DNA of 64,000 nucleotides, taken from a virus. This document shows, in pieces, positions 2,546-30,679 of this stretch. Below the pieces are notes generated by a model, which worked only from the letters and a program-made list of their open reading frames with translations, made no database searches and was not told the DNA's origin. The position numbers and the translations under genes were made by a program. Location: positions 32,001-96,000 of IMG/VR virus record IMGVR_UViG_3300006841_000093, one strand, 5' to 3'. Numbering within the stretch: position 1 is the first letter of the stretch; every line of letters starts with the position of its first letter.

Positions 2546-3433
2546 TTACTCTTCATCATTTTTAAGAATCAAATTAGCACGTTTCATTGCACTAATCATT
2601 CTAGTTACACCGATTCCGCCCCCATATCTAGGTATAAAATCGTGTGATAAAAATTCATCGAGTTCAGCTTCTACTCTTTCTTTTCCGAATAGATTAAATA
2701 ACAAGTCTGCATAACCGCCTTCAGAGATAGTATAGAATTGTTTTCTCATTTCATCAACATCTGTACCACGTTCAGCACTACCGATAGTTTCCATGCCTCC
2801 CATGATAACATCACATTTATTAGCAAGCTTATGTTGTTTTTTTACATCCATTTCACCAAGTTTCATATTCCAAAAAGGACTTGTAGATTGGGGAAAATGT
2901 GTTAGAAAAAATACATCACCATATTCTTGATACATTTCTTCTTCATGGTGGGCTTCTAATTCTGAGCCAGTATATTTTGCTAATACACTCTGATAAAATC
3001 CGCCAGGAAAATCTTCAGTATACATATTTTTTTCAATTCCGGCTTTAAATCCAAGATGTTTACAAAGATCATTTTCCATTTGAAGAAGATCCTCAAAATC
3101 ACCAGGAGCTTCAAATTCAAACATAGGAAAAATTAATTCATGTCTCCCCTCTTTTGGATTTTGTTCTTGTCGATATGAAGTTGATAAACAATAACATCCA
3201 GCAAGTTCAGGTCTTGTCAGTAGTTCATATTCTAACCACATTTGACCAGTTTGAGGAAGTGGCCAGATTTGTCCTGAATATTCGTATGTAGCAACAGTAG
3301 TAGGATCTTCACATGCTGCTAAAATAGATAATCTGTTTTGGGTATGTACTTCTTGAAATCCTCTATCATCAAAAAAGGATCGTAGTTGGCGAGTTACTTC
3401 TGTGAAATCATAAGGTGATATAATTGAGCTCAT
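2546..3433 (-). CDS. Class II aaRS catalytic-domain-only paralog (Asp/Asn/Lys family; archaeal-type asparagine synthetase AsnRS2/AS-AR-like)
   Basis: 295 aa with motif 2 (SYRQEQNPKEGRHELIFPMFEFE), GMETIGSAER and motif 3 (RYGGGIGVTRM); no N-terminal OB-fold; strong RBS AAGGAG. Confidence 0.75.
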   Translation of the reverse strand: MSSIISPYDFTEVTRQLRSFFDDRGFQEVHTQNRLSILAACEDPTTVATYEYSGQIWPLPQTGQMWLEYELLTRPELAGCYCLSTSYRQEQNPKEGRHELIFPMFEFEAPGDFEDLLQMENDLCKHLGFKAGIEKNMYTEDFPGGFYQSVLAKYTGSELEAHHEEEMYQEYGDVFFLTHFPQSTSPFWNMKLGEMDVKKQHKLANKCDVIMGGMETIGSAERGTDVDEMRKQFYTISEGGYADLLFNLFGKERVEAELDEFLSHDFIPRYGGGIGVTRMISAMKRANLILKNDEE

Positions 3434-4530: not shown

Positions 4531-5715
4531 ATGTTAAATTTAAAATCATTCATTGTGGATGATGAGTTGATAATTGATAAACCAAATTGGTATAAACTCA
4601 AAAATGAGTATTCACAACAAGAATTGAAAGATGCAATATCTGATACTATTGAGGGCTTACCATTACCATTATTTCCAATTACCGAAAAAGAAGCTAAAGA
4701 AGAATTTGAAGAATTAGTAAAGTTTGATGCAAGAACTTTATTAACTAAAGACAATCTGTATTCCAAAGCAGATTACAAGTATGAGTTGTCTCATTGGTAT
4801 TTAAAAAATAGTGTAGTGGGTAGAAAATCATCTAATTATTTTCATCAACTTGCTAGGTGGAGAGTACAACATGCAAGACATACTAGCCCCTATCGTTCTT
4901 GGACTATTAAAAAATTCCATCAAACATTTTTAAATCCTCTATGGACATTAAGTATGCCAGAGGTAAATAGTAAATATTTAAGAATGTGTATTCAAATGAG
5001 AATGTATATGGCGGCACAATATCCACCAGCAGTAGCAAAATCTCTTTACAATTTATTTGAAGCAAAAGATGTTTTAGATTTTTCTATGGGGTGGGGTGAT
5101 AGATTGGCAGGATTTCACGCCTCTAATGCAGAAAGTTATACAGGCATTGATCCTAATGAAGAAGTGATGAAAAATTATCCAAGACAAAATGAACTTTATG
5201 AAACTTATAAGAAAACAAAATTTATACAAGCTCCTGCTGAAGATGTGGACTTGAGTGATAGTGAATTTGATATGGTCTTTACATCGCCACCATATTTTCA
5301 TGTTGAAAGATATGCAGATGATGAAACACAATCTTGGAAACGATATGGAAAAGATATAGATGTTTGGTTAGGAGATTTTCTATTTCCAGTTTTGGAAAAA
5401 TGTTGGAACTCCTTAAAGGATGGTGGAACAATGATTGTCAATATAGCAGATGTATATGCAACAGATAAAGGACAAAATAAATCTTATGTATCTATTTGTG
5501 ATCCTATGAACGATTTTATAAAAACCCTTCCACAATCAGAATATACGGGATGTATCGGACTACAATTAAATCGAAGGCCTGGAAGTAATAATGATAAGCC
5601 AGAGTCAAAGAATAAAAAAATTATTGAACCAATGTGGGTATGGAAAAAAGGAGATGATAGGACATTGGATCAAATAATTGATGATACTTCCCCCTTAAGC
5701 AAATTTTTTCAATAA
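4531..5715 (+). CDS. DNA amino-methyltransferase (N4C/N6A)
   Basis: Motif I DFSMGWGDRL and motif IV TSPPYF; ends SPLSKFFQ. Confidence 0.8.
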   Translation: MLNLKSFIVDDELIIDKPNWYKLKNEYSQQELKDAISDTIEGLPLPLFPITEKEAKEEFEELVKFDARTLLTKDNLYSKADYKYELSHWYLKNSVVGRKSSNYFHQLARWRVQHARHTSPYRSWTIKKFHQTFLNPLWTLSMPEVNSKYLRMCIQMRMYMAAQYPPAVAKSLYNLFEAKDVLDFSMGWGDRLAGFHASNAESYTGIDPNEEVMKNYPRQNELYETYKKTKFIQAPAEDVDLSDSEFDMVFTSPPYFHVERYADDETQSWKRYGKDIDVWLGDFLFPVLEKCWNSLKDGGTMIVNIADVYATDKGQNKSYVSICDPMNDFIKTLPQSEYTGCIGLQLNRRPGSNNDKPESKNKKIIEPMWVWKKGDDRTLDQIIDDTSPLSKFFQ

Positions 5716-8421: not shown

Positions 8422-9636
8422 ATGGAATATACTGACAAACAAATGAGTTTTCTTAGTGCAGCAGTTACCAAGTATGGTGAAGGCGCAGTTGTTTCTAAGG
8501 AAAACATTACAGAAACCGCCGAAGAAAATGGATTGAAATTTCCATTTTGGTTGACAGATACAAGGCGTATGGGTTCTTTTACTAAGGTTGATAAGGACAC
8601 ATACCGATTACCGGCGCTTAATGGTGGTGAGGGAGCTACAATAGCTGATGTTGTTGAAACAACAGTAGTAGTTGATAAAGCATCTGAAGTTGTCGTTGAA
8701 TCTAAGAATTCAGAAAGTTCAATGGATATGAGTACATATTTTAATCCAGCAGAATTGATTCCTAAAAAAGATCCGTTGTTTGTAGCACATGGACATTTTG
8801 GTGATTTGACTAAAGTTATTCAGTCAAGGAAATTCTATCCAGTATTTGAAACTGGAGAATCTGGAACTGGTAAAACTTATATGACCGAACAAGCGTGTGC
8901 CAAACTCAAGAGAGAATTTATCAGAGTAAACATTACTGTTGAAACCGATGAAGATGATCTTTTGGGTCACTACGCATTGATTGATGGTAATACAGTTTGG
9001 CAGGACGGCCCTGTAGTCATCGCAATGGAGCGTGGAGCAGTTCTTCTCCTTGATGAGATTGACTTGGCATCCAACAAAGTGATGTGTCTACAACCAATAC
9101 TTGAAGGTAAAGGTGTTTATCTGAAGAAGGTAAATCGAATGGTAAAACCAGCTGATGGTTTCACAGTAGTCGCAACCGCCAATACTAAAGGTAAAGGTTC
9201 TGAAGATGGAAGATTCGTTTTTACAAATATTTTGAACGAAGCTTTCCTTGAAAGATTTCCGATTACAATGGAAGTTGGATATCCTTCAGCACAAACCGAA
9301 AAGAAAATCGTGAACAAAGTTCTCGATTCACTTGGTGTTTCCGATACTGATTTTTCAGAAAAGTTAGTAAATTGGGCAAACGCCATTCGCAAGACTTTTT
9401 ATGATGGTGGAATTGACGAAGTTATCGCAACTCGCCGATTGGTTCATATCTCTAACGCATTCGCAATTTTCAGAGATAGAATGAAAGCCATTGAAATGTG
9501 TGTCAATCGTTTTGATGAAGACACAAAAACTAGTTTCTTGGATTTGTATTCCAAGATTGACGCCGGTGTTGACCTTGAAGAAACTGAAGAAGTTTCAGAA
9601 GAGGAATATCCCGAAGAAAATGTTAATCCTTATTAG
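8422..9636 (+). CDS. cobS: CobS/MoxR-like AAA+ ATPase
   Basis: Walker A GESGTGKT, Walker B LLLDEID, ATANTKGKG and AFLERF, as in T4-like phage CobS. Confidence 0.85.
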   Translation: MEYTDKQMSFLSAAVTKYGEGAVVSKENITETAEENGLKFPFWLTDTRRMGSFTKVDKDTYRLPALNGGEGATIADVVETTVVVDKASEVVVESKNSESSMDMSTYFNPAELIPKKDPLFVAHGHFGDLTKVIQSRKFYPVFETGESGTGKTYMTEQACAKLKREFIRVNITVETDEDDLLGHYALIDGNTVWQDGPVVIAMERGAVLLLDEIDLASNKVMCLQPILEGKGVYLKKVNRMVKPADGFTVVATANTKGKGSEDGRFVFTNILNEAFLERFPITMEVGYPSAQTEKKIVNKVLDSLGVSDTDFSEKLVNWANAIRKTFYDGGIDEVIATRRLVHISNAFAIFRDRMKAIEMCVNRFDEDTKTSFLDLYSKIDAGVDLEETEEVSEEEYPEENVNPY

Positions 9637-12191: not shown

Positions 12192-12851
12192 ATGAAACTT
12201 ACAGCAGAAACAGTCGCGATACTTAAAAATTACGCAGCAATAAATCAAAACATACAGTTTAAGGAAGGTAAGACATTATCAACCATTTCCCCCCAAAAAA
12301 ATATTTTATCAAGTGCAGAAATTAGTGAAGAGATTTCACAAACATTTGCTATCTATGATCTTAATAGATTATTAGCGGCAATGAGTGCTTATGATAAAAT
12401 TCCAGAATTAATACTTGAAGAGAATCGATTGTTAATTAATGGTCAAACAAAATATACTTATGGTGATCCGGCCATGTTAGTATTACCTCCAGAGAAAAAA
12501 CTTGATTTTCCGGAGCCGGAGATACAATTTAAAATGCCAAAAGATAAGTATGATATGTGTTTGAAAATGGCATCGATTTTACAAGTTCCAGAATTAGTTG
12601 TACAAGGAGATGGAAGTAAAATATTTTTAGTTGCAACTGATACTAATAATTCTTCAGCAGATCAACATCCAGAAGAAGTTGGAACTACAGATAAACAATT
12701 TCAGATGGTTTTCAAGATTGAAAATATGAAACTTTTAAGTGGAAATTATGAAGTTGGAATCTCTTCTAAAGGTATTTCACATTTTTCACATGAACATTCT
12801 AAATTACAATATTGGATAGCAACAGAACAAAATTCAACGTTTAATGGATAA
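12192..12851 (+). CDS. gp45: Sliding clamp
   Basis: MKLTAETVAILKNYAAINQNI, FAIYDLN and FKIENMKLL; immediately before gp44. Confidence 0.9.
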   Translation: MKLTAETVAILKNYAAINQNIQFKEGKTLSTISPQKNILSSAEISEEISQTFAIYDLNRLLAAMSAYDKIPELILEENRLLINGQTKYTYGDPAMLVLPPEKKLDFPEPEIQFKMPKDKYDMCLKMASILQVPELVVQGDGSKIFLVATDTNNSSADQHPEEVGTTDKQFQMVFKIENMKLLSGNYEVGISSKGISHFSHEHSKLQYWIATEQNSTFNG

Positions 12852-12853
12852 AC

Positions 12854-13792
12854 ATGGAAAACTTTTTATGGGTCGAAGAATTCCGTCCTAAGACTGTAGC
12901 GGATTGTATTCTTATAGAACCAACTAAAGAAGTCTTTCAAGGTTTCGTTGATGATGGTAAAATTCCTAATTTACTTTTATCTGGCGGAGCGGGAGTAGGT
13001 AAAACTACTGTTGCTCGTGCTATGTGTGATGAAATTGGTGTAGACCATTTAATGATCAACGGATCTAATGAGGGAAGAAATATAGATACAGTAAGAACTA
13101 CTTTACAACAATACTGTAGTTCAGTTTCCATGTCAGGTGGAAGAAAAGTAGTAATAGTCGATGAGGCAGATTATATGAATGCTGATTCGGTACAACCTGC
13201 ATTAAGGGGGTTCATTGAAAAATTTAGTGCCAATGTTAGTTTTATCTTTACTTGTAATTTCCGTAATCGGATTATTGATCCTATCCATAGTCGTTGCTCT
13301 GTAGTAGAATTTATTACTCCAAGATCAGAGAAACCAAAACTCGCTCAAGAGTGTTTAGTTAGGGTTAAAGAAATTCTAACACAAAAAGGAATTAAGTTTG
13401 AAGAAAAAGTACTTGCAGAATTAGTTTTGAAACATTTTCCAGATATGAGGAGAGTGATAAATGAACTTCAAAGATATGCAGCGGGTGGAATTATTGATGC
13501 CGGTATCTTAGCACAGATTGGTGAAATCAATCTTCTTGAACTGATGAAGGCGTTGAAGGAAAAACATTTTTCAGAAGTTCGTAAATGGGTTACACAAAAT
13601 ATCGATAATGATCCAGTAAAGATTTTTAGAAAGATTTATGATGGTGTACATGAACATCTCAAAGATACTTCAATTCCACAAGCTGTTCTTGTTATTGCAG
13701 AATATCAATATAAATCTGCGTTTGTTGCAGATCAAGAAATTAACTTAGTTGCCTGTCTCACAGAGATGATGGTTGATTGCGAGTTTAAATGA
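12854..13792 (+). CDS. gp44: Clamp loader large subunit
   Basis: LWVEEFRP, GGAGVGKTT, DEAD, SRC and FPDMRR. Confidence 0.95.
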   Translation: MENFLWVEEFRPKTVADCILIEPTKEVFQGFVDDGKIPNLLLSGGAGVGKTTVARAMCDEIGVDHLMINGSNEGRNIDTVRTTLQQYCSSVSMSGGRKVVIVDEADYMNADSVQPALRGFIEKFSANVSFIFTCNFRNRIIDPIHSRCSVVEFITPRSEKPKLAQECLVRVKEILTQKGIKFEEKVLAELVLKHFPDMRRVINELQRYAAGGIIDAGILAQIGEINLLELMKALKEKHFSEVRKWVTQNIDNDPVKIFRKIYDGVHEHLKDTSIPQAVLVIAEYQYKSAFVADQEINLVACLTEMMVDCEFK

Positions 13793-15237
13793 ACGAAGAA
13801 CTATTAAAAATATATGAAGATAATACAAATGAATATGGATTGCCGGTATTCGATTTATTTACTTGGCAAAATATAAATACAAAATATATTGATCCTGATA
13901 CTTCTTTGCCTATGTCTAAACGGGCTAAAGTCATGATCGATACTATGATACATTTCTTTGAAAAACACAAACCTAAATTTCCATTTAGAGATTTTGATGA
14001 GCACGATGTTAGACAAAACTTTTATACTTTATGTAATCTCAATCTAAAAGATAATATCTTCCCTAAAGAAAAATGTAAAACTGTACATGAAAAATACGAT
14101 GACTATGTAGGAAATTTTCCAGAATGGGGAATGGGTATTTTAAATTTTAGTTCAAATTATAATAATATTTCAGATATGTTCATGAATCGTGAACGAATGA
14201 AATGTAGTTATGATCGTTCACCTAGCCCAATTACTATGTGGAATGATCAAACAGATTTAAAACAAATTCTTTCTCCAATATGGAGACTTCATCCTGATTG
14301 TGGAATGCCACTCAAGAATAATTTATATATTGAGGGTGTTAGAGTCGGAGCATATTTTGCTACTCAGTTTAAACCTTCAGTAGCAAAAGCCTTTTATGAT
14401 TTTACTAAGTCTAAAAAAGTTCTTGACACAAGTTCAGGATGGGGTGATCGAATGGCAGGATTCTTTGCATCAAATGCCGAAGAATATTATGGTATGGACC
14501 CGAATGGTGATCTACATCAAAACTATCACTCAATGGCCGTACAATATAATAATTGGTTAGGTGCAGAGAATCCCCAAACTACAACTGGAGATAATTGGTT
14601 TCAAGTTGAAGGTAAAAAGAAAGTAAAAATTTATAGATCACCGGCAGAGGATTTGCCGTGGGATGAAATTCCAGATGATATTGATATCATGTTTAGTTCA
14701 CCTCCGTATTTTGCTACTGAAAAATATGCAGAAGGAAGCAAGTTCGAAAATGATCAATCATGGAGTCGTTATAATTCTTATGAAGCATGGAGAGATGGGT
14801 TTTATCTTCCAGTAATGAAAAAAGCATTTGAGAAATTATCTCCCGGTGGATGGTTAATGGTGAATATCATGGACCCAAAAGTTAAAGGTAAAAGACATAA
14901 ATCTTGTGATGATTTGGTAAATGATCTTAAAGAATATTTTGTAGGTCAAATTGGAATGAGAATTATGGCTAGACCTAAAAGTATTAAATCTTTTGAGGGA
15001 GATACCCATGAAGAAAGAAAAGCAAAATATGATGAATGGCAAGCAAAATGGTTTATTGAATCAGTTTGGTGTTTTAGAAAGCCTGATCCTAGTAATAATA
15101 ATGTTGATATCTTTGCTCCTTATAAAGATTCTACTTTGGATGGCATGGGGCCAATCGTTGTTCAACAACCTATTAAAAAGAAAAAGTTATCAGAAGCAAC
15201 AACTGAGAAATCTTCATTAGAGGGGTTTTTTGATTAA
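13789..15237 (+). CDS. DNA amino-methyltransferase
   Basis: ATQFKP, DTSSGWGDRM and FSSPPYF; ends SSLEGFFD; paralog of 4531 and 17107. Confidence 0.8.
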   Translation: MNEELLKIYEDNTNEYGLPVFDLFTWQNINTKYIDPDTSLPMSKRAKVMIDTMIHFFEKHKPKFPFRDFDEHDVRQNFYTLCNLNLKDNIFPKEKCKTVHEKYDDYVGNFPEWGMGILNFSSNYNNISDMFMNRERMKCSYDRSPSPITMWNDQTDLKQILSPIWRLHPDCGMPLKNNLYIEGVRVGAYFATQFKPSVAKAFYDFTKSKKVLDTSSGWGDRMAGFFASNAEEYYGMDPNGDLHQNYHSMAVQYNNWLGAENPQTTTGDNWFQVEGKKKVKIYRSPAEDLPWDEIPDDIDIMFSSPPYFATEKYAEGSKFENDQSWSRYNSYEAWRDGFYLPVMKKAFEKLSPGGWLMVNIMDPKVKGKRHKSCDDLVNDLKEYFVGQIGMRIMARPKSIKSFEGDTHEERKAKYDEWQAKWFIESVWCFRKPDPSNNNVDIFAPYKDSTLDGMGPIVVQQPIKKKKLSEATTEKSSLEGFFD

Positions 15238-16036
15238 TGAAATCACACCATTAGAACAGTATAAAATAAAAGATAAAACTGTTCATGTAAAACGTGATGA
15301 TCTCATGGGAGATGGAGTTGAACATCCACCGTGGGGTAAACTGACTGCTCTACGTAAGGTGTTAGAGACTATTAATCCTCAAAAACCATTAATACATCTT
15401 TCTGTTTATGGGTCTTGGTCTGGATGGGCACTCTCTGAAGTGTCAAAAGAATTAGATTATGAATTTATTATGGCCTATCCTGACTCTAAGAAATTCCCAA
15501 AACATATTTTAGACAAATCAGAAAATGTTCTTCCTATTAAACCTAATATGATGAACGTGATGTATAATAAAGTGGGACAGATAGCAAGAGAAAAAGATTA
15601 CATTAGATTACCATATGCGTTTGATCATCTAGAGTATATTAAAACACAAAAAGCTAGACTATACGAAGTTAAACAAGAATTAGAGTTTGATCATTTAGTA
15701 GTTTCTTCTGGATCGGGAGTTACTTGTCTTGGAATGGTGATGGAACATGAACCGTGGCCACAATTATTTGATACAGGAAATACAAGAACTTTTCATACTG
15801 TATGTGTATCAAGTGAAGGAACTATTAAAAAGAAATTTAAAAAATATGGTATCGAACCAACAGAACAAGTTGAAATAGTCAAGAGTAAATTTGCATTTGA
15901 TGATATGATGGATTCGTATGAAACTCCATTTCCTTGTAATGAATTTTGGGATAAGAAGGCTTGGTATTGGTTAGAACAAAACATTGACAAATTTAAAGGT
16001 GAAATTTTATTTTGGAATCTGGGAGGTAACTGGTGA
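15230..16036 (+). CDS. PLP-dependent fold-type II enzyme (ACC deaminase/D-Cys desulfhydrase-like)
   Basis: HVKRDDL...GKL (Schiff-base Lys), SSGSGVT phosphate loop and FWNLGG. Confidence 0.7.
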   Translation: MINEITPLEQYKIKDKTVHVKRDDLMGDGVEHPPWGKLTALRKVLETINPQKPLIHLSVYGSWSGWALSEVSKELDYEFIMAYPDSKKFPKHILDKSENVLPIKPNMMNVMYNKVGQIAREKDYIRLPYAFDHLEYIKTQKARLYEVKQELEFDHLVVSSGSGVTCLGMVMEHEPWPQLFDTGNTRTFHTVCVSSEGTIKKKFKKYGIEPTEQVEIVKSKFAFDDMMDSYETPFPCNEFWDKKAWYWLEQNIDKFKGEILFWNLGGNW

Positions 16037-16247: not shown

Positions 16248-17126
16248 GTGAGTAGAGTTGTATTAAAAGACAAAAAAGATATGAATGAAATCCATCAATT
16301 TGGTGATCACTTCAAAACGTGGGATGAAGTTACAGATAATGGAATGGAGTGGGAAGATTATAAAATCATGGGCTCACAAGATGAAATTGAACGTGATCTT
16401 GAAACACAAGTATTGAGTGTTAAGTTTTCCAAGATAGGACAAAAAACATTTGATGCATATCCAAATCTAAAATGGATTCAATGTAGAGCACACGGATCGG
16501 ATAATATCAATTTAGAATTAGCTGAAGCTCGTAGAGTGGGAGTTGTTTGTTTAGATCCAGATACAGAAAATGTTGCAAATTGGATTAACCGATGGAAAAG
16601 GGGTAAACGAATTTTATTATTAGGTGCAGGTAAAATTGGTAAGATGTTAGCTCTTGGTTTAGATCATGAAGTAACAGAAGTGACTTCCCAAACTGATTAT
16701 AATACAATTTATCCATACATGGACACGTTTGATACAATAATCGTTGCTTCATCACCTACATCTCAACCAATCGTAGATCACGCATTGTTAGAAAAATTTA
16801 ATGGAAGTATTATTTCTATATCAAGACCGGCGTGTATAGATAATGAGGCATTACTTGAAGCGGCGAAGGATGGTAGAATAACACATGCTCAAATGGATAT
16901 GTTAGATCCTAAAGGAAGAGAAGAATTAATAGAAACAGGAAAAGTAAAGTATCATAAACACACTGCATGGGAAGCACAAGGACTAAGCCAATATGATATG
17001 AGATATTTTGCTATGGTGTTTCAAGAAATACAATGGTTATTAGTGGATAAACCAACGTATGAACCGCCCATACGAAATAGTAGAATTGTTTTAGAACGAA
17101 AAGGTAATGCATTGTTTGGAGACTAA
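16248..17126 (+). CDS. D-2-hydroxyacid dehydrogenase-like protein
   Basis: CRAHGSDNI, Rossmann LLGAGKIG, SISRPACID and His in KYHKHTAW. Confidence 0.7.
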   Translation: MSRVVLKDKKDMNEIHQFGDHFKTWDEVTDNGMEWEDYKIMGSQDEIERDLETQVLSVKFSKIGQKTFDAYPNLKWIQCRAHGSDNINLELAEARRVGVVCLDPDTENVANWINRWKRGKRILLLGAGKIGKMLALGLDHEVTEVTSQTDYNTIYPYMDTFDTIIVASSPTSQPIVDHALLEKFNGSIISISRPACIDNEALLEAAKDGRITHAQMDMLDPKGREELIETGKVKYHKHTAWEAQGLSQYDMRYFAMVFQEIQWLLVDKPTYEPPIRNSRIVLERKGNALFGD

Positions 17127-18051
17127 CGAATTTCCTTATTATCCTACAGATGATGTTTGGAGGAGAGAAGAATTTTCTAAATTTATTCAGTATCAAGGAA
17201 ACTTATTGGATAATAAAATAATAAAACAGACTATGCATGGTCTAGCACTTTCGTGGTCTTATATGCCACACGCCTTTGATGTTAAATGTGGTAATATGAA
17301 TACACCTTTACAAACTTTTCTTAATGACAAAGAAAAGATCAAAAAGAAGATGGAGCAACTTGGTCATGTTGATTCGCCTTCAGGTTTGAGAAAAGCATTA
17401 AAGGTTATGTCAGGCTCACAAGGAGTTAGTAATTTTAGACCTACTGCGGCTCAAGCAATATATGAAAAGTTTTTACCAAATGGTGGAACTACATGGGATA
17501 TGTCTGGAGGTTATGGTGGAAGATTATTGGGAGCAATAAAAACTCAAATAAATTATATTGCTACTGAACCGGCGAAAGAAACGTTTGATGGATTGACTCA
17601 GATCGCAAAGGATTGGGGTCAACAATCAAACCTTTTTGGAATAAAACAACGTTTAGAAATAGTTCAGAGTGGAAGTGAAGATTATGTTCCAGAGGAAGAT
17701 TCATTAGATTTGTGTTTCACTTCACCGCCCTATTTTGATACAGAAAAATATTCTAATGAAGATACTCAAAGTTATAAAAAGTTTCCAAAGAAAGTAGATT
17801 GGTTAGAAGGTTTTTTACGAAAGACAATTCAAAACTGTCACCGAGGCTTAAAGAAAAATCGTTATTTAATTATCAATATAGCTAATGTTAGCTCATTTGA
17901 TACATTAGAAGATGAAACTGGAAATATAGTTTTGTCTGAAGGATTTGAATACTTAGATACATTTCAACTTTCTCTGTCAAAGATGCCAGGAAAGAATATT
18001 GCAAATGATGTATTCAAATATGAACCCGTATTTCTTTTCAGAAAGAAATGA
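17107..18051 (+). CDS. DNA amino-methyltransferase
   Basis: SNFRPTAA, DMSGGYGGRLLG and FTSPPYF. Confidence 0.8.
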   Translation: MHCLETNEFPYYPTDDVWRREEFSKFIQYQGNLLDNKIIKQTMHGLALSWSYMPHAFDVKCGNMNTPLQTFLNDKEKIKKKMEQLGHVDSPSGLRKALKVMSGSQGVSNFRPTAAQAIYEKFLPNGGTTWDMSGGYGGRLLGAIKTQINYIATEPAKETFDGLTQIAKDWGQQSNLFGIKQRLEIVQSGSEDYVPEEDSLDLCFTSPPYFDTEKYSNEDTQSYKKFPKKVDWLEGFLRKTIQNCHRGLKKNRYLIINIANVSSFDTLEDETGNIVLSEGFEYLDTFQLSLSKMPGKNIANDVFKYEPVFLFRKK

Positions 18052-18097: not shown

Positions 18098-18194
18098 ATA
18101 TAATAGTAGATAACAATATGGTTTTGTTATCAAGTAAGTTGTTATACCTTAAACGTGGTGGACGCAACTCTAAATAACTTTTTTGGAGATAGTA

Positions 18195-19229
18195 ATGGAA
18201 AATTACACAAATGGCAGTAGACTGCTACAAAATAAGACTGTACCTATTACAGTTATAGCTGAAAGATTAAATCTCTCACCTAAAAGAAAATCGTTCAATA
18301 AAAACGATTACCTACCAATAACTTACCTCAAAGCAAGTCAACTTAAAGTAGCCACAGATATTCAGAGAATAGTCATAATCTCGATGATTAAAGGGGCTAA
18401 AGTTTTTAATGGTAAATTAGCAAGACCTTTATATGTCTTTAAAAGACCAAATGGTGATTATGTTGTAACAGATGGACAACATACTGCAATTATTGCAATT
18501 TTGTATACTGAGGAACGTGGTGATGTTATATTGCCTTGTCAAATAGATATACATCCCTCACATTATACCATTGAAGAATGTGAAGCGGCGGAAGCCCAAA
18601 AGTTTAGGGAGTTAAACAGTAAACGTAGACAAGCTGGTAAAGTAGATAGACTTAGGGCAGATATTGCAGAAGGACTTGAAGAGGCCTTACAGACTTTATC
18701 AGACCTAGTAGATATGGGTGTCCATGTTGAAAGACTTGGAAACGAAGATGGGCCTGAAGTTCATGGTTATTCTAAGTTAATGGAGGCACATAAAGCCTAT
18801 GGACTTAAAAGTGTTTGTTTAGCAATCGAACTATATCAAAAACTTCAAAACGATTCCAAATTTAGGAAGTGGAATAATATTGAAAAACCCCTTAATGGTG
18901 GTTTAATTGGTGGACTGGCAGCAGTTTACTATTTTATCAGAGAATATCTTGGAGAAGGTGATAAAAGGTTCGCTCTTGAAACTTTTTTAGATGATTATCT
19001 GGGTAAATTCAAACCAAAAGATTTGTTAGAGGGTACAGCAGGTGTTTCACAAGCTGTTCTTATTGCCCGAAAAATTATTATTAGTTGCAATACCCAAATA
19101 GATCTAGAACATATAACAAAGAAAAATGGTAATGTTCTAGAAGTAAATATTGGAGAAGAACTTTTGTCTCAAGCTGGATTGGGTGATCCTAGTAAAATGA
19201 AAAGGGAATTGACCAACTCCAGAACCTGA
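18195..19229 (+). CDS. ParB/Srx-like domain protein
   Basis: ATG at 18195 after GGAG; DIQR and YVVTDGQHT (DGQHR-like) motifs. Confidence 0.55.
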   Translation: MENYTNGSRLLQNKTVPITVIAERLNLSPKRKSFNKNDYLPITYLKASQLKVATDIQRIVIISMIKGAKVFNGKLARPLYVFKRPNGDYVVTDGQHTAIIAILYTEERGDVILPCQIDIHPSHYTIEECEAAEAQKFRELNSKRRQAGKVDRLRADIAEGLEEALQTLSDLVDMGVHVERLGNEDGPEVHGYSKLMEAHKAYGLKSVCLAIELYQKLQNDSKFRKWNNIEKPLNGGLIGGLAAVYYFIREYLGEGDKRFALETFLDDYLGKFKPKDLLEGTAGVSQAVLIARKIIISCNTQIDLEHITKKNGNVLEVNIGEELLSQAGLGDPSKMKRELTNSRT

Positions 19230-19238
19230 AAATATTAA

Positions 19239-20675
19239 ATGTGTGGATTCGTAGCTGGAAATATTTTTAAAGATACAAAACACTTTCATGCCGCGTTGAG
19301 TCTTATTGATCATCGCGGTAGAGATTATAAAGGTGTTAATTATTGTATTAAAACAAATACTTACTTAGGTCATAATAGACTTTCTATTCAGGGGTTGACT
19401 GAGGAATCTAATCAACCTATGATTAAAGATAATTATACATTAGTTTATAATGGTGAATTATGGCACAGTATGAATCCACATAAAGAAAAATTCAATTTAC
19501 AGACTAGTAGTGATACAGAGTTGTTACTCAATATGTTTCACTTAGACCAACAAGATTGTATCAAAACACTTGATGGTATGTTTGGGTTTGCGGTCTTGGA
19601 TAATAAAAGAAATTACTTGACCTTTGCTAGAGATTTTATGGGTAGAATTCCCTTGTACTTTTTCAAGAGAGGTAAAGAAATTATCGTAGCAAGTGAACTA
19701 AAAGCAATTACAAACTCATTGAACATTAATGCTTCTGATGTAGTATTAGCAGATCCAGGTTGTTACTATCAATTTGATTATGTAACAGGAGAATTGACAA
19801 AGAGAACATATTATGAATTTCCTGCAATGGATGATATTGAAGATATGTCAGAAGAAGAAGTGATGGATGGTATACGTAATTTATTAACTGAAGGTGTACA
19901 TAATGAGTTAATAAGTGATGTACCTGTTTGTACAATTTTGTCAGGCGGAGTAGATTCTACTGTCGTTACATATCTACTCAAACAAAAAATTCCAGATCTA
20001 CAAGCATTTGTAGTGAGTATGGGTGATACTGGAAAGAAAGATGATTTGTACTATGCAAGAATGGCGGCTAAAGAAATTGGTGTTCCACTCCATGAAGTTA
20101 TTATTGATGAGGAGTGGGTAGAACAAAATTTAACTGAAGCAGTCTATGCAGTCGAAGATTTTAGTTGGACACAAGTTTCTCCGGCGGTTGCTCAATTAGC
20201 ACTTTCCAAAAGAATTCATGATGAAGGGTTTAAGGTCGTCTTTGGTGGAGAAGGTAGTGATGAATTGTTTGCTTCCTATGGACATGTATTTGCGTGGAAC
20301 TATGAAGATAAAGATTACATCAAAGAACGATATAAGCTGGTAGTAAATCTCCACAAAAACAATTTAATACGAACCAACAAAGCAATGATGTATGGTGGAA
20401 CAGTAGAATTAAGAACACCATTTCTTCACAAAGATTTGGTCGAATTTTGTTTGAGAATTCCCCCGAAGTATAAGCAAACAGCCGATAGAGTGTGGAAACC
20501 AATGTTAAGAAAAGCTTTTTCTGGCAAACTTTCAGATGAATTATTATTCAGACCAAAAAAGACTTTTCAAGATGGTTGTCACACTATCTACCTCAAGAAT
20601 CATAAGGAAAGAATTAAAGAAACGTATTTGACGCATTATGGTCAAAAAAATCCATTAGAGAGTTTTTTCGGATGA
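19239..20675 (+). CDS. asnB: AsnB-family glutamine amidotransferase / ATP pyrophosphatase
   Basis: Cys1 Ntn domain (MCGF, HRGRD, GHNRLSI, NGE, SDTE), SGGVDS PP-loop, GEGSDELF and RTPFL; ends NPLESFFG. Confidence 0.85.
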   Translation: MCGFVAGNIFKDTKHFHAALSLIDHRGRDYKGVNYCIKTNTYLGHNRLSIQGLTEESNQPMIKDNYTLVYNGELWHSMNPHKEKFNLQTSSDTELLLNMFHLDQQDCIKTLDGMFGFAVLDNKRNYLTFARDFMGRIPLYFFKRGKEIIVASELKAITNSLNINASDVVLADPGCYYQFDYVTGELTKRTYYEFPAMDDIEDMSEEEVMDGIRNLLTEGVHNELISDVPVCTILSGGVDSTVVTYLLKQKIPDLQAFVVSMGDTGKKDDLYYARMAAKEIGVPLHEVIIDEEWVEQNLTEAVYAVEDFSWTQVSPAVAQLALSKRIHDEGFKVVFGGEGSDELFASYGHVFAWNYEDKDYIKERYKLVVNLHKNNLIRTNKAMMYGGTVELRTPFLHKDLVEFCLRIPPKYKQTADRVWKPMLRKAFSGKLSDELLFRPKKTFQDGCHTIYLKNHKERIKETYLTHYGQKNPLESFFG

Positions 20676-21772
20676 AATTATATAATGAAGATTGCATGAA
20701 ACAAATGCAAGAGATGATTGATGATGGAATTCAAGTTGATTCTGTTGTTACAGATCCCCCATACGGTATTCATTTTATGGGTAAGGATTGGGATAAATTT
20801 AAAGGTACTAAAGTTACCAAGAGTCAAGTAGTTACAAATTTGGGAGCAGGAATGAGAATGACTACTCACAAAGAAAATATGGATTTTCAGAAATGGTGTA
20901 ACGAATGGGCAATTTTGTGTTTAGAGTTATTAAAGCCAGGTGGTTATATTTTAGCATTTAGTTCTTCAAGGACTTATCATCATTTGGCTTGTGGTATTGA
21001 ATCAGCAGGATTTGAAGTACGAGATCAACTTATGTGGTTGTATGGTTCAGGATTTCCAAAGAGTATGAATATCGGAAAAGGTTGGGGAACTGCACTCAAA
21101 CCAGCACACGAACCTGTTGTTATGGCGAGGAAACCAGTTGAAGGAACTGTCGCAGATAATGTTTTGAAACATGGAACAGGTGGTATCAATATTGATGATT
21201 GTAGAATAGATTTATCTGAAGGTGATGATCCAAGATTGGGCGGTAAAGGAACTTGGAAAACTGATAAGATGGCAAAAGATGTTTATGTTGGTGGATATGC
21301 AGGAGAAGATCAAGGATCAAGTGAGTTGGGTAGATTTCCAGCAAATGTGATGCACGATGGTTTAGAACAAGAGTGGGCACGATTCTTCTATTGTCCAAAA
21401 GTTTCTAGAAATGAAAGGAACGGGGGATTGGAAAATATGGAAGAAAAGATACACAATACAGAAGATTGTACTAATTTACCATCTATAAGAACTAATAGTG
21501 TAAATACTTCTAGTGGGAAACAAAGAACAGTCAATCCTACCAAAAATAATCATCCAACAGTCAAACCGATTGAGTTGATGAAATACCTTTGTCGCCTTGT
21601 AACTCCAAAAGGTGGAATTGTTCTTGATCCATTTATGGGTTCAGGTTCTACTGGAATGGCTGCGAAGGATGAAGGATTTGATTTTGTGGGAATTGAACGG
21701 GAGAAGGAATATTTTGAGATTGCAGAAGCACGTATCAATGCTTCTTCACCTTTATTGGATTTTTTTGAATAA
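20672..21772 (+). CDS. Beta-class DNA methyltransferase
   Basis: TDPPY, GSGFPK, HPTVKP and DPFMGSGST; ends SPLLDFFE. Confidence 0.9.
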   Translation: MKLYNEDCMKQMQEMIDDGIQVDSVVTDPPYGIHFMGKDWDKFKGTKVTKSQVVTNLGAGMRMTTHKENMDFQKWCNEWAILCLELLKPGGYILAFSSSRTYHHLACGIESAGFEVRDQLMWLYGSGFPKSMNIGKGWGTALKPAHEPVVMARKPVEGTVADNVLKHGTGGINIDDCRIDLSEGDDPRLGGKGTWKTDKMAKDVYVGGYAGEDQGSSELGRFPANVMHDGLEQEWARFFYCPKVSRNERNGGLENMEEKIHNTEDCTNLPSIRTNSVNTSSGKQRTVNPTKNNHPTVKPIELMKYLCRLVTPKGGIVLDPFMGSGSTGMAAKDEGFDFVGIEREKEYFEIAEARINASSPLLDFFE

Positions 21773-23371: not shown

Positions 23372-24472
23372 ATGGAATTACAGCAGTTTAAAGAAGTTAG
23401 TCAATTATTCATGGATTATGATGGAGAAGTTCAGATTAATCCATTTGCAAAGGTTCATTGGGGTACTGTTCAAGAGAATCACCTCAATGGAAAACTGTTT
23501 GTTGACAATGATAAAAACTATGGTATAATAGGTAGTGAGGCTAAAACAAGTAGAGAAGTAAAAGATTTTTCTAATCAAGTTGTTGGTCAAATTAAAGTAG
23601 GAGATATCTGTATCAAGAGATTTTTCTACAAAGAAGGATATAGAGAAAATGTAGTAAATCATATTTCGAAAATGAGAGAATCAACATTCGGAGATCGTGA
23701 TTTATGGTTTACTCATATTAATATGGAACATGAAGGAGATAAAGCGGTTGCTAAAGAATTTAATGCAACTTGGTTATCTTCAAGAATAGACGCGGTAGCA
23801 GCAGAAGTTAGAGGAGTATATTATTCTGGAGAACAAAAACAAATAGGATTAGGAAAACATGAAAATATTCCTTGTTGTAGATTAGATTATCCATATATTG
23901 AAGGATTAGATGAATTTTCAGAAGAATTAGATGAATACGTGAAAGATGGATGGGGAATAGCAGATCATCAAAAATCTTATGGTGGTAAAGATAAAACGTG
24001 GACATCTATCGAAATAATACCATTAATAGTTACTTATGGTACTAAAAAAGCAAAACAAGGTCTTAGGGGCGATTTAAACGAAGAATATATTAAGAGATTT
24101 CCTATTATTGAGAATATTATCAATCAGATAACCACTTTTGATGACTGTTTGTGGTTAGCAGTTGCTAAAGTATCTCCAAAAGGTGGTAATATATCAAGAC
24201 ATAGTGATAAAGGTATCGACAAAATGAATGCCGGAATACAGATTGGTAAAACGGCAAGAATACATTATGTGATGAAATCTAATCCTGAAACATATTTTCA
24301 ATTACAAGACCTTCAGGGAAAGACTCATAAATATTCTATGAAACAAGGTGAATATTGGTATATGGATAAGAGAAAACCCCACTCCGTATACAATAAAGGT
24401 GATACATTTAGGTATCACATGATTTTTGATATGAAAGTAACACAAGATTTATGGGACCATTTGATTTTATAA
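23372..24472 (+). CDS. Fusion of an N-terminal GNAT-like domain and a C-terminal Asp/Asn beta-hydroxylase-like 2OG-Fe(II) domain
   Basis: C-terminal ISRHSD...RIH...GEYWYMDKRKPHSVYN...RYHMIFD; N-terminal beta/alpha pattern like acetyltransferases (weaker). Confidence 0.6.
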   Translation: MELQQFKEVSQLFMDYDGEVQINPFAKVHWGTVQENHLNGKLFVDNDKNYGIIGSEAKTSREVKDFSNQVVGQIKVGDICIKRFFYKEGYRENVVNHISKMRESTFGDRDLWFTHINMEHEGDKAVAKEFNATWLSSRIDAVAAEVRGVYYSGEQKQIGLGKHENIPCCRLDYPYIEGLDEFSEELDEYVKDGWGIADHQKSYGGKDKTWTSIEIIPLIVTYGTKKAKQGLRGDLNEEYIKRFPIIENIINQITTFDDCLWLAVAKVSPKGGNISRHSDKGIDKMNAGIQIGKTARIHYVMKSNPETYFQLQDLQGKTHKYSMKQGEYWYMDKRKPHSVYNKGDTFRYHMIFDMKVTQDLWDHLIL

Positions 24473-24855
24473 AAGCAATCAATACACATAAAAATATCAT
24501 GAAAGATGGTGATCCATTGGCTGAAAAGGATTATGTACCTTTTCTTGTTAATCGTGGTTTATCGTTTTTTCAAGATACTGTTATACAAGTCAATGAAATG
24601 AATAGGTTACATTTTATTGACCACAAGCTCCAATTCGATTATTTGCTAAATAACATTAGACCAAGAAAGAGATGGTCTAAGTGGTTGAAACCAGACAAAA
24701 TTGATAATCTAGAACTAGTCAAAGAGTATTTTGGTTTCGGTAATGAAAAAGCAAAGGATGCTCTTGAAATCCTTTCTAGTGAGGATATCGAAGAGATTAA
24801 GAGAAAACTTGCAAAAGGTGGAATGGAGAAAAATAATGACAGTAAACATAGATGA
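24451..24855 (+). CDS. gp62: Clamp loader small subunit
   Basis: PFDFIKAIN, YVPFLVNRGLS, NEMN, QFDYLLNNIRPRKR and KEYFG..NEKA. Confidence 0.9.
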   Translation: MGPFDFIKAINTHKNIMKDGDPLAEKDYVPFLVNRGLSFFQDTVIQVNEMNRLHFIDHKLQFDYLLNNIRPRKRWSKWLKPDKIDNLELVKEYFGFGNEKAKDALEILSSEDIEEIKRKLAKGGMEKNNDSKHR

Positions 24856-28204: not shown

Positions 28205-30679
28205 ATGTCAAAATTTTATACTAACGTAGTATGTCTAGGTAATTATATTTTCGAAAGGGGAATAGAAAATGGATTACCTTTTGAAGAAAGACATGAATTT
28301 AAACCTACCTTATATATTCCTACCACAACTGAAACTAAATGGCGAACACTTGAAGATGAGCCAGTAGCCCCTGTTCAATGGGGATCTATTAAAGAAACCC
28401 GCGAATCAGTAAAAAAGTATGAAGGTGTAGATAACATGAAAATCTACGGCCATACAAATTATAATTATTCTTTTATTGCTGAAACATATCCAGAAAATAT
28501 TGATTACAATTTAGAACATCTTAAAATGATGTTTCTAGATATTGAAGTTGCTTCTGAACAAGGATTTCCTGATCCTGAAAACGCATCAGAAGAAGTAGTT
28601 GCCATTACTACAAAGATGGGTGATGATATTCAAGTTTGGGGTTGTAATGAATTTAAGAATGATAAAGAGGATATTACATATAATAGATGTTTTGATGAAC
28701 GACAATTATTAGAAGAATTTGTCATGTATTGGCAGAAGAATTGTCCTCATGTAATTTCTGGTTGGAACACAAAAACATTTGATACTCCATATCTTATTAA
28801 CAGAATTCGTAATATCTTAAATGAAACGTGGGTCAAGAAACTTTCACCGTGGGGATTTGTTAAAGAACAAAAAATCTTTGGTATGGGTGGTCGTGAAGTT
28901 CAGACTTATGAAATCTATGGTGTGTCTGAAATTGATTACTTGGATGCCTACAAGAAGTTTACTTATACTAATCAAGAGTCATATAGATTAGATCATATTG
29001 CTTATGTAGAATTGGGTCAAACTAAACTAGACTTTTCTGAAGTAGCAACACTCCATGAATTGTACAAGAAAGATTTTCAAAAGTTCATTGAATACAATAT
29101 TCAAGATACATTATTGGTTAGTCGCCTTGAAGATAAATTAAAACTTTTAGAATTGATTATTTCTCTGGCATATCTGTCGAAGTGTAATCTCACAGATGTA
29201 TTTGCACAGACTAGAATGTGGGATTGTATTATTTACAATCATCTTTTGAGAGAGAAAATTGTAATTCCTCAAAAGACTAAACATAGTAAAGGTGATATGT
29301 ATGAGGGTGCTTATGTTAAAGCACCACAATGTGGTAGACATGAATGGATTGTGAGTTTTGATTTAAACAGTCTATATCCACATTTGATTATGCAATATAA
29401 TATTTCTCCTGAAACCATCTTAGGACAATGGAAAGATGAAATAGGAGTAGAAGGTTTAATCGATAAAGAATTTGATACATCAGTTTGGAAACAAAAAGAT
29501 ATAACAGTTACACCGAATGGATCTGTTTATCGTAGAGATAAGCAAGGGTTTCTTCCCCAATTAATGGAAAGTATGTACAATGATAGGGTGAAATATAAAA
29601 AGAAAATGTTAGATGAACAGAAAAAGGGAAGAAACTCTGATCCAAATAAATTATCACAATATTACAACTATCAACAAAATTTAAAGATTGCATTAAACTC
29701 CGCCTATGGAGCAATGGGTAATCAATGGTTTCGTTATTATGATGAACGTAATGCAGAAGCAGTTACTGCAGCAGGTCAGTTATCAATTCAATGGGCCGAG
29801 AATGCAGTAAACAATTATTTAAACAAAACATTAGGTACACAAGATGTTGACTATATTGTTGCTATGGATACTGATTCTTTATATGTTCGTCTTGATGATC
29901 TTGTTTCTAGAATTGGTATTACCGATAAGGAAAAAATCATTGGATTCTTGGACAAGGCCTGTGGAAGAATCGAAGAAGTAATTGAAAAATGTTATACTGA
30001 ATTAGCGGAGTACATGAACGCCTATCAACAAAAGATGGTCATGAAACGTGAGGTCATTGCTGATACAGGAATTTGGACAGCAAAGAAACATTATATTCTG
30101 AACGTTCACGATTCTGAGGGTGTTCGATATGAAGAACCAAAATTAAAGATTGTGGGTATTGAAGCAATTAAAAGTTCAACACCAGAAGCATGTAGACAAT
30201 CACTTAGAGAGATTTTCAATATTATTATTTCAGGCACAGAAGATGATGTTATTGGTTATATTGAAAAGTTTAAAGAGAAGTTTTTTGGTTTGAATATGGA
30301 AGCTGTAGCATTTCCAAGATCTGTTAATGGATTAAAAAAATATAAAGATTCAGCAACAATTTATAAAAAATCAACTCCAATTCATGTTAAGGGAAGTTTA
30401 ATTTATAATCACATGTTGAGGACTAAGAAATTAACTAGAAGATATCCTGTTATACAAGAGGGTGAAAAGGTTAAGTTCACTTATCTCAAAGATCCAAATC
30501 CAGCAGGTGATAAAGTAATTTCTGTATTAAATAGTTTACCAAAAGAATTTGAATTAGAGAAATATATAGATTATGATACCCAATTTGAGAAAGCATTTAT
30601 CGAACCATTAAAAGGTGTATTAGATGTAATTGGGTGGGAAACAGAGAGAAAGTCAAGTCTTGACAATTTTTTTATATAG
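28205..30679 (+). CDS. gp43: Family B DNA polymerase
   Basis: Exo DIE, SFDLNSLYP, KIALNSAYG and MDTDS; C-terminal clamp-binding SSLDNFFI. Confidence 0.97.
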   Translation: MSKFYTNVVCLGNYIFERGIENGLPFEERHEFKPTLYIPTTTETKWRTLEDEPVAPVQWGSIKETRESVKKYEGVDNMKIYGHTNYNYSFIAETYPENIDYNLEHLKMMFLDIEVASEQGFPDPENASEEVVAITTKMGDDIQVWGCNEFKNDKEDITYNRCFDERQLLEEFVMYWQKNCPHVISGWNTKTFDTPYLINRIRNILNETWVKKLSPWGFVKEQKIFGMGGREVQTYEIYGVSEIDYLDAYKKFTYTNQESYRLDHIAYVELGQTKLDFSEVATLHELYKKDFQKFIEYNIQDTLLVSRLEDKLKLLELIISLAYLSKCNLTDVFAQTRMWDCIIYNHLLREKIVIPQKTKHSKGDMYEGAYVKAPQCGRHEWIVSFDLNSLYPHLIMQYNISPETILGQWKDEIGVEGLIDKEFDTSVWKQKDITVTPNGSVYRRDKQGFLPQLMESMYNDRVKYKKKMLDEQKKGRNSDPNKLSQYYNYQQNLKIALNSAYGAMGNQWFRYYDERNAEAVTAAGQLSIQWAENAVNNYLNKTLGTQDVDYIVAMDTDSLYVRLDDLVSRIGITDKEKIIGFLDKACGRIEEVIEKCYTELAEYMNAYQQKMVMKREVIADTGIWTAKKHYILNVHDSEGVRYEEPKLKIVGIEAIKSSTPEACRQSLREIFNIIISGTEDDVIGYIEKFKEKFFGLNMEAVAFPRSVNGLKKYKDSATIYKKSTPIHVKGSLIYNHMLRTKKLTRRYPVIQEGEKVKFTYLKDPNPAGDKVISVLNSLPKEFELEKYIDYDTQFEKAFIEPLKGVLDVIGWETERKSSLDNFFI

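Follow-up and report, generated by a model that had tools for sequence, protein, structure and literature searches.

A predicted clamp-docked AsnB-family amidotransferase of T4-like phages that may act on modified DNA

An AsnB-family glutamine amidotransferase is encoded at 19239-20675 of a 64,000-nucleotide stretch (hereafter the window) that covers bases 32001-96000 of the IMG/VR virus record IMGVR_UViG_3300006841_000093, a complete T4-like phage genome of 134.5 kb. Comparative analysis makes it fairly probable that this protein does not serve asparagine synthesis but is a glutamine-dependent amidotransferase, docked on the sliding clamp, that would turn the carboxyl group of a DNA adduct installed by SPPY-type transferases into an amide. 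The first-pass annotation of the window had proposed an enzyme that works on DNA together with proteins of the methyltransferase fold and is retained at the clamp. Comparative tests support this core idea because the C-terminal tail covaries with that of the polymerase, the subfamily appears to be restricted to viruses, aspartate-handling residues are lost, SPPY genes are linked to AsnB, and the protein is related to a member of a CmoA/CmoX cluster. No CmoA was found in the genome or in the related loci.

The AsnB-family protein and its active site

The following features were mapped on the gene.

19239..20675, plus strand: AsnB-family glutamine amidotransferase, 478 amino acids (P0001), recognised by TIGR01536 and Pfam
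19242..19808, plus strand: N-terminal nucleophile (Ntn) glutaminase domain, with Cys2 directly after Met (GATase_7/GATase_6 matches; residue map)
19941..19958, plus strand: PP-loop SGGVDS, residues 235-240, in the synthetase domain (alignment to 1ct9; residue map)
20652..20672, plus strand: C-terminal tail PLESFFG, candidate sliding-clamp-binding peptide (motif common to gp43 and gp55)

The open reading frame (ORF) starts with ATG, is open throughout and ends in KNPLESFFG, and its TGA stop shares the bases ATGA (20672-20675) with the start codon of the following gene. Pfam identifies GATase_7 (1e-26) and Asn_synthase (1.7e-52), and the best solved relative is E. coli AsnB (1ct9; E = 1.5e-45, about 28% identity). 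The Ntn cysteine and the equivalents of the glutamine-site residues R49, N74, E76 and D98 are all kept, as expected of an AsnB member. The PP-loop motif SGGxDS is present as SGGVDS, and the catalytic residues E348 and K449 are matched by E338 and the K449 equivalent. A complete Ntn plus PP-loop AsnB, as first annotated, is thus encoded, with the full 478-codon frame, both Pfam domains, the nucleophilic cysteine and the PP-loop in place.

The resemblance to asparagine synthetase is partial. In the residue map, the equivalents of E348, D351, E352, R387 and K449 are kept, and the broad model TIGR01536 is passed narrowly (284 bits, cut-off 267), whereas the AsnB equivalog PRK09431 is failed (287 bits, cut-off 499). 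Lysine 376 of E. coli AsnB is presumably a further aspartate-site residue. Throughout the subfamily, Boehlein's T323 is replaced by Q, R325 by S, K376 by L and D384 by N. The proteins also end about 65 residues earlier than E. coli AsnB, and therefore the C523 segment is missing. T322, T323, R325 and C523 have a reported role in aspartate and ATP binding, in so far as Boehlein's work is relayed in PMC5775275, and D400 of ASNS, which corresponds to E. coli D384, is a conserved residue of the synthetase site (PMC6748925). The set of residues that handles aspartate and beta-aspartyl-AMP (T322/T323/R325, C523 and D384) is accordingly not conserved.

An ordinary auxiliary metabolic gene would be the simplest alternative, namely a compact asparagine synthetase that raises the asparagine supply and whose methyltransferase neighbours are an effect of a variable region. 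The TIGR01536 score, the kept glutaminase site, PP-loop and catalytic residues, the label asparagine synthase given by public pipelines, and the AsnB-like genes that other large phages carry are all in line with it. The failed equivalog and the loss of the R325, T323, D384 and K376 equivalents and of the C523 segment count against it. In addition, a close cellular donor was not found in a pattern scan of GTDB, the linkage to SPPY genes survives several rearrangements, and there is no reason for a metabolic enzyme to carry a polymerase-type tail that changes along with that of the polymerase. This explanation is regarded as unlikely.

Linkage of AsnB with SPPY genes

The AsnB gene lies in a gene island inserted between gp44 and gp62, which are neighbours in T4. 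After gp44, the island holds SPPY482, PALP268, HADH292, SPPY314, a ParB-like gene, AsnB, two beta-class methyltransferases and a 2-oxoglutarate (2OG) oxygenase. No match to the island was found by megablast in 50,697 phage records. The candidate partners of AsnB in the window are as follows.

13789..15237, plus strand: SPPY482, class I S-adenosylmethionine (SAM)-transferase-like protein ending in SSLEGFFD (motif I VLDxSxGWGDR, motif IV TSPPYF)
15230..16036, plus strand: PALP268, fold-type II pyridoxal-phosphate (PLP) enzyme of the deaminase/dehydratase type (phrog_7093, 4e-21)
16248..17126, plus strand: HADH292, D-2-hydroxyacid dehydrogenase family (invariant Arg193 and His238)
17107..18051, plus strand: SPPY314, shorter SPPY paralog without the tail, present in some relatives only (shared SPPY motifs)
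23372..24472, plus strand: 2OG366, Asp/Asn beta-hydroxylase-like 2OG oxygenase, recurrent module member (PF05118, 2.5e-10)
4531..5715, plus strand: SPPY394, third SPPY paralog, ending in SPLSKFFQ, the type that adjoins AsnB in other lineages

The 482-residue protein, the PLP enzyme, the dehydrogenase and AsnB form a constant set across 13 close relatives, in which the presence of the ParB-like gene and the beta-class methyltransferases varies. The conserved partners of AsnB are therefore the SPPY paralogs, the PLP enzyme and the 2-hydroxyacid dehydrogenase, and not the ParB-like or beta-class genes. In about 50 of 71 divergent T4-like loci, AsnB adjoins one to three SPPY paralogs, and most of the remaining loci are contigs that end close to AsnB. 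The dehydrogenase is also found in about 28 loci, the PLP enzyme in about 22 and the 2OG oxygenase in about 12. Gene order within the module varies between lineages, and the module often adjoins the polymerase. In one lineage, neither a PLP enzyme nor a dehydrogenase is found near AsnB and its SPPY neighbours. A 180-residue, weakly GNAT-like protein (acetyltransferase PHROGs, E = 1e-4) stands between AsnB and the SPPY genes in this lineage (L070:9430-9972, with equivalents in L071-L098).

The association is one-sided. SPPY genes occur in at least 596 stretches of IMG/VR, usually alone beside gp43. The sister contigs L194 and L195/L196 share the order polymerase, gp44, SPPY394-type gene and differ by the presence of AsnB between the last two. 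At the level of gene order, AsnB looks like a removable add-on, and SPPY genes with an optional AsnB are what one would expect of a base modification that can, but need not, be taken one step further.

Partner enzymes

SPPY482, SPPY394 and SPPY314 are paralogs with common motifs I and IV, in the arrangement of SAM transferases that act on amino groups. The AlphaFold2 model of SPPY482 (predicted template modelling score, pTM, 0.82; residues 448-482 disordered) has a class I methyltransferase fold. In Foldseek/VIA-align comparisons, tRNA m2G enzymes, O-methyltransferases and TYW2 score in one range; with neighbours so generic, the fold reveals neither the acceptor nor the group that is transferred. 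Searches of Protein Data Bank (PDB) sequences with SPPY482 and PALP268 gave nothing useful. The SPPY482 family is very common in uncultured marine T4-like phages (loci L104-L182 among the IMG/VR stretches mentioned above), and its tail mirrors that of the polymerase nearly always. Sequence comparison suggests a DNA transferase that is tethered to the clamp, widespread in these phages and missing from the genomes of cultured ones.

For PALP268, 9 of 12 homologues match PF00291, and Lys37 and the glycine loop SGSGVT are invariant across the homologues. Its AlphaFold2 model (pTM 0.86) is closest to the PDB folds of threonine deaminase, an ACC deaminase homologue and D-cysteine desulfhydrase. Together with the dehydrogenase, PALP268 belongs to enzyme types that make and reduce 2-oxo acids. 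Homologues of 2OG366 lie inside the module in L028-L066. The N-terminal 180 residues of the oxygenase have no family match, and in distant lineages (L028, L038, L043, L060, L063) it ends in a conserved KHLD[AS]L[LI].

A second alternative follows from these enzymes. The substrate of AsnB might be a small molecule in free form that the PLP enzyme and the dehydrogenase supply, for example a nucleotide, a cofactor analogue or a 2-hydroxy- or 2-oxo-acid. AsnB would then never touch DNA, and the amidated product would be used elsewhere, possibly as a donor moved to DNA by SPPY. Small molecules are the substrates of every known fold relative of PALP268 and HADH292, and proteins in which AsnB is fused to the dehydrogenase (P0055, P0098 and P0099, about 770 amino acids) suggest metabolite channelling. 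The lack of a polymerase-like tail on PALP268 and on the 2OG oxygenase also speaks for this alternative. The C-terminal motif R-x-x-N-x-[LW]-F of HADH292 (here NALFGD) is invariant between lineages and shows no covariation with the polymerase tail (alignment A5), so it points the same way; the motif may have a structural role or serve as a second docking peptide. The alternative is nevertheless considered improbable. It fits poorly with the lineage that keeps AsnB and SPPY alone and with the clamp-type tail on AsnB itself in two lineages, and the published homologue CmoY acts directly on DNA (PMC12783734).

C-terminal tail and the sliding clamp

Two features of the window are needed as a reference for the tail.

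12192..12851, plus strand: gp45 sliding clamp, presumed docking partner (phrog_223, 1.9e-60)
28205..30679, plus strand: gp43 DNA polymerase, ending in SSLDNFFI, the reference clamp-binding tail (phrog_262, 1052 bits)

The C-terminal peptides of T4 gp43 and gp55 bind gp45. T4 gp43 ends in ASLDFLFG and T4 gp55 in SLDFLYEAND, with the common core SLDFL[FY]. The corresponding ends in this phage are SSLDNFFI in gp43, ALELFMSAA in gp55 (phrog_234) and PLESFFG in AsnB, and the methyltransferase-fold proteins SPPY482, SPPY394 and MT366 end in SSLEGFFD, SPLSKFFQ and SPLLDFFE, respectively. The pattern L..FF.?$ is found at five C-termini among 152 plus-strand ORFs where 0.09 would be expected (Poisson P = 6e-8). 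One of the five is the DNA polymerase, and no unrelated protein of this phage carries the L..FF tail.

AsnB orthologues retain the tail as [SP]L[ED]xF[FML] down to 64% identity, while the surrounding residues drift. In a second lineage, whose polymerase is about 30% identical, the polymerase ends in KKFF[EDS]F and AsnB in NKFFxxA. In L060, L064 and L066 the polymerase tail is LEDFF and the AsnB tail is LE[KE]FM. Covariation with the polymerase was seen in two lineages for AsnB and in dozens of contigs for SPPY482, where homologue and polymerase tails on the same contig pair as LEHLFA/LEGLFQ, NLLDFL/TLEDFL and NLDEFFG/NLDEFFG. The AlphaFold model of SPPY482 places the tail after a 30-residue disordered linker. 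The clamp-type tail NPLESFFG noted at first reading is well supported by its presence on the phage's own gp43 and gp55, by its rarity and by its covariation with the polymerase. The phage AsnB is probably tethered to the gp45 clamp, as judged from these sequence patterns. That the shared peptide is another signal, such as a degradation or assembly tag, and that AsnB has nothing to do with the replisome is very unlikely: the peptide is short and degenerate and some lineages lack it on AsnB, but both classical T4 clamp clients, gp43 and gp55, bear it here at the extreme C-terminus as in T4, and in SPPY482 it follows a disordered linker.

Distribution of the subfamily

Signature peptides of the subfamily matched 118 stretches in IMG/VR, of which 113 were relatives. 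The same peptides in 185,579 prokaryote genomes of GTDB returned nothing above 29% identity (matches 22-29%) in a pattern-based scan, which may miss variants. For this reason, the scan is a strong hint, and not proof, that the phage AsnB belongs to a virus-only subfamily. Close homologues were also absent from cultured phages, where the best match was 33% identical.

Three carriers of 130-274 kb have the gp23 capsid gene and are therefore T4-like phages. A giant-virus origin of the 548-residue AsnB forms is not supported, as their carriers have gp23. A search of these carriers for capsid genes of nucleocytoplasmic large DNA viruses gave no match, but the control also gave none. The tree also places within the viral subfamily, with a long branch, the AsnB-like gene of one contig from a metagenome-assembled genome (MAG) of Candidatus Peregrinibacteria (L024, 30.6 kb). 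This gene could come from a prophage or from phage DNA that contaminates the MAG, or it could be a genuine cellular member.

Relationship to the CmoA/CmoX/CmoY clusters

Synechococcus phage S-B43 makes 5-carboxymethylcytosine (5cxmC) with CmoA and CmoX (Yang et al., Nat Commun 2025, PMC12783734). The study also showed that the AsnB homologue CmoY joins glycine to 5cxmC within DNA. CmoY homologues that bear a glutaminase domain were predicted, but not tested, to use ammonia (PMC12783734). The same authors found no candidates for N6-adenine or N4-cytosine carboxymethyltransferases (PMC12783734).

SpCmoY, a synthetase domain of 271 residues, is 20% identical to the phage AsnB (E = 4e-4). The closest cultured relative of the phage protein is gp124 of Streptomyces phage TurkishDelight (33% identity over 455 residues). 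Its gene lies between homologues of CmoX (8e-73) and CmoA (5e-21), beside two ParB-like genes. TurkishDelight gp124 and the AsnB subfamily have the Q322/L376/N384 signature in common, and the two group together in a small tree with support of 93/91 and long branches.

Searches of the genome and of 88 related loci gave no CmoA (TIGR00740), nothing for PF00145 and no tblastn hit to either SpCmoA or SpCmoX, and CmoA and CmoX were likewise not found in 79 SPPY482-type and 22 SPPY394-type loci. A phage-encoded route through carboxy-SAM (Cx-SAM) and CmoX was rejected because neither CmoA nor CmoX was found in the genome or related loci. A 5-hydroxymethyl-pyrimidine route was rejected because the genome has no thymidylate-synthase homologue.

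Proposed mechanism

In the proposed mechanism, a SPPY transferase would first put a carboxyl-bearing group on the exocyclic amine of a base. AsnB would be docked by its tail on the gp45 clamp behind the fork. Its glutaminase domain would make ammonia and its PP-loop domain would adenylate the carboxylate, after which the AMP would be replaced by the glutamine-derived ammonia, leaving a carboxamide on DNA. The likely purpose is to shield phage DNA from host nucleases.

The most speculative step is the nature of the group, which may be the 3-amino-3-carboxypropyl (acp) moiety of SAM. It is proposed because it is the only carboxyl-bearing group that SPPY could take from SAM itself unaided, and because the oxygenase, the PLP enzyme and the dehydrogenase would gain a chemically coherent role. 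Where present, the 2OG enzyme, the PLP deaminase/dehydratase and the dehydrogenase would turn the amino-acid end into a 2-hydroxy acid before amidation. Cx-SAM made by the host is an alternative source of the carboxyl group. That T4-like phages run a complete clamp-tethered acp assembly line, from SPPY through the 2OG, PLP and dehydrogenase enzymes to a carboxamide cap added by AsnB, is a tentative and rather doubtful extension of the proposal.

Several observations weigh against an amidotransferase that acts on DNA. AsnB is absent at 77 of 79 SPPY482-type and 19 of 21 SPPY394-type loci; of five longer SPPY contigs, four have no Asn_synthase match and the fifth has one about 30 kb from SPPY. 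Since SPPY genes mostly occur without AsnB, the SPPY proteins may do no more than methylate, and AsnB would then lack a substrate. The region around gp44-gp62 and gp43 is a known variable region of T4-like genomes, and this location could inflate the apparent linkage. Structure searches give SPPY482 a generic class I methyltransferase fold and nothing narrower. No CmoA, C5-methyltransferase or hydroxymethylase was found in the genome or the related loci, which leaves only a presumed source for the carboxyl group. A third lineage, with AsnB forms of 541-571 residues that include the 548-residue form, has no polymerase-like tail on AsnB. Finally, TIGR01536 is passed, and the kept residues include E348, D351 and E352, through which ASNS binds the aspartate amino group.

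Genome setting and other genes of the window

The assignment to T4-like phages rests on gp45, gp44, gp62, RegA and gp43, all of which were recognised in the window. Polymerases of marine cyanomyoviruses share about 51% identity with that of this phage. The borders of the island and its variable genes are listed below.

12854..13792, plus strand: gp44 clamp-loader subunit, left island border (phrog_168, 4.6e-118)
24451..24855, plus strand: gp62 clamp-loader subunit, right island border (phrog_225, 2.8e-40)
18183..19229, plus strand: weakly ParB-like protein, variable accessory (phrog_2558, function unknown, 5e-57; phrog_1033, ParB-like, 7e-4)
20672..21772, plus strand: MT366, beta-class N6/N4 DNA methyltransferase ending in SPLLDFFE, variable accessory (N6_N4 match, 7e-38)

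AsnB had been described as flanked by ParB-like and methyltransferase genes. The downstream N6_N4 methyltransferase is clear; the upstream gene is weakly ParB-like, and both are variable accessories. The ParB-like gene has no Pfam match, and among the close relatives it is found in L003 only (47% identity).

A second possible asparagine synthetase had also been pointed out at 2546, and it stays at the level of a possibility. The gene (2546-3433, minus strand) encodes a 295-residue class II aminoacyl-tRNA synthetase catalytic core of the AsnRS/AspRS type (PF00152, 1.3e-19) without an anticodon-binding domain; it strongly matches phrog_29758 (function unknown, 2.7e-102) and has no AsnA match. 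It is divergent from a 321-residue gene of no known function and SPPY394. Other genes of the early region encode a phosphoribosyltransferase-domain protein (1398-1952), a 766-residue peptidase-like protein (6020-8320, phrog_459) and a CobS-like AAA protein (8422-9636, phrog_249, 'porphyrin biosynthesis').

Significance

If the amidotransferase does act on DNA, the label asparagine synthase in many uncultured T4-like phages hides DNA hypermodification enzymes, and CmoY chemistry would extend to a different transferase family and probably to a different base position. Phages would recruit base-modifying enzymes to the sliding clamp and so shield new DNA as it is made. Literature searches found no methyltransferase or amidotransferase reported to carry a T4-type clamp peptide, and no description of such recruitment to T4-type clamps; likewise, they found nothing relevant on asparagine synthase in DNA hypermodification or on aminocarboxypropyl modification of DNA. 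If the acp proposal is true, an acp-type modification of DNA would be seen for the first time, and so would base-modifying enzymes that ride on a T4-type clamp. A new modified base would be relevant to restriction evasion, to the sequencing of environmental phage DNA and to enzymatic DNA labelling. The tails would also offer a sequence rule, in which a C-terminus that matches that of the polymerase points to other replisome-tethered phage enzymes.

Comparison with known systems

With E. coli AsnB (1ct9) and human ASNS (6gq3), the phage protein shares the two domains, the Ntn cysteine, the glutamine site, the PP-loop and the E348/D351/E352, R387 and K449 equivalents. It differs from both in the failed equivalog, the lost T323, R325, K376 and D384 equivalents and C523 segment, the clamp-type tail and the apparent restriction to viruses.

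As in the CmoY system, an AsnB homologue is encoded beside DNA enzymes of the SAM-transferase fold, often with ParB-like genes near. The two systems would also share ATP-dependent amide formation on a carboxylated DNA base. The partners differ, being SPPY paralogs, a PLP enzyme, a 2-hydroxyacid dehydrogenase and a 2OG oxygenase here, and the phage AsnB, unlike SpCmoY, has a full glutaminase domain and a clamp-type tail.

In diphthamide synthesis, Dph2 transfers the acp group from SAM and the PP-loop enzyme Dph6 amidates it. The proposed pathway would follow a similar chemical logic, in that SAM would supply the 3-amino-3-carboxypropyl group and an ATP-dependent PP-loop enzyme would amidate its carboxylate at a later step. 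The likeness goes no further than this resemblance, since diphthamide is formed on a histidine of a protein, and not on DNA, by enzymes of unrelated families.

Like the T4 clamp clients gp43, gp55 and gp33, the phage proteins carry an acidic-hydrophobic peptide at the extreme C-terminus. The T4 peptides are SLDFLFG and SLDFLY, and the form here is L[DE]xFF on gp43, gp55, AsnB and the methyltransferase-fold proteins. Unlike the T4 clients, which are replication and transcription factors, the clients here include predicted base-modifying enzymes. In eukaryotes, DNMT1 and PCNA provide a case of a base-modifying enzyme that is recruited to the sliding clamp.

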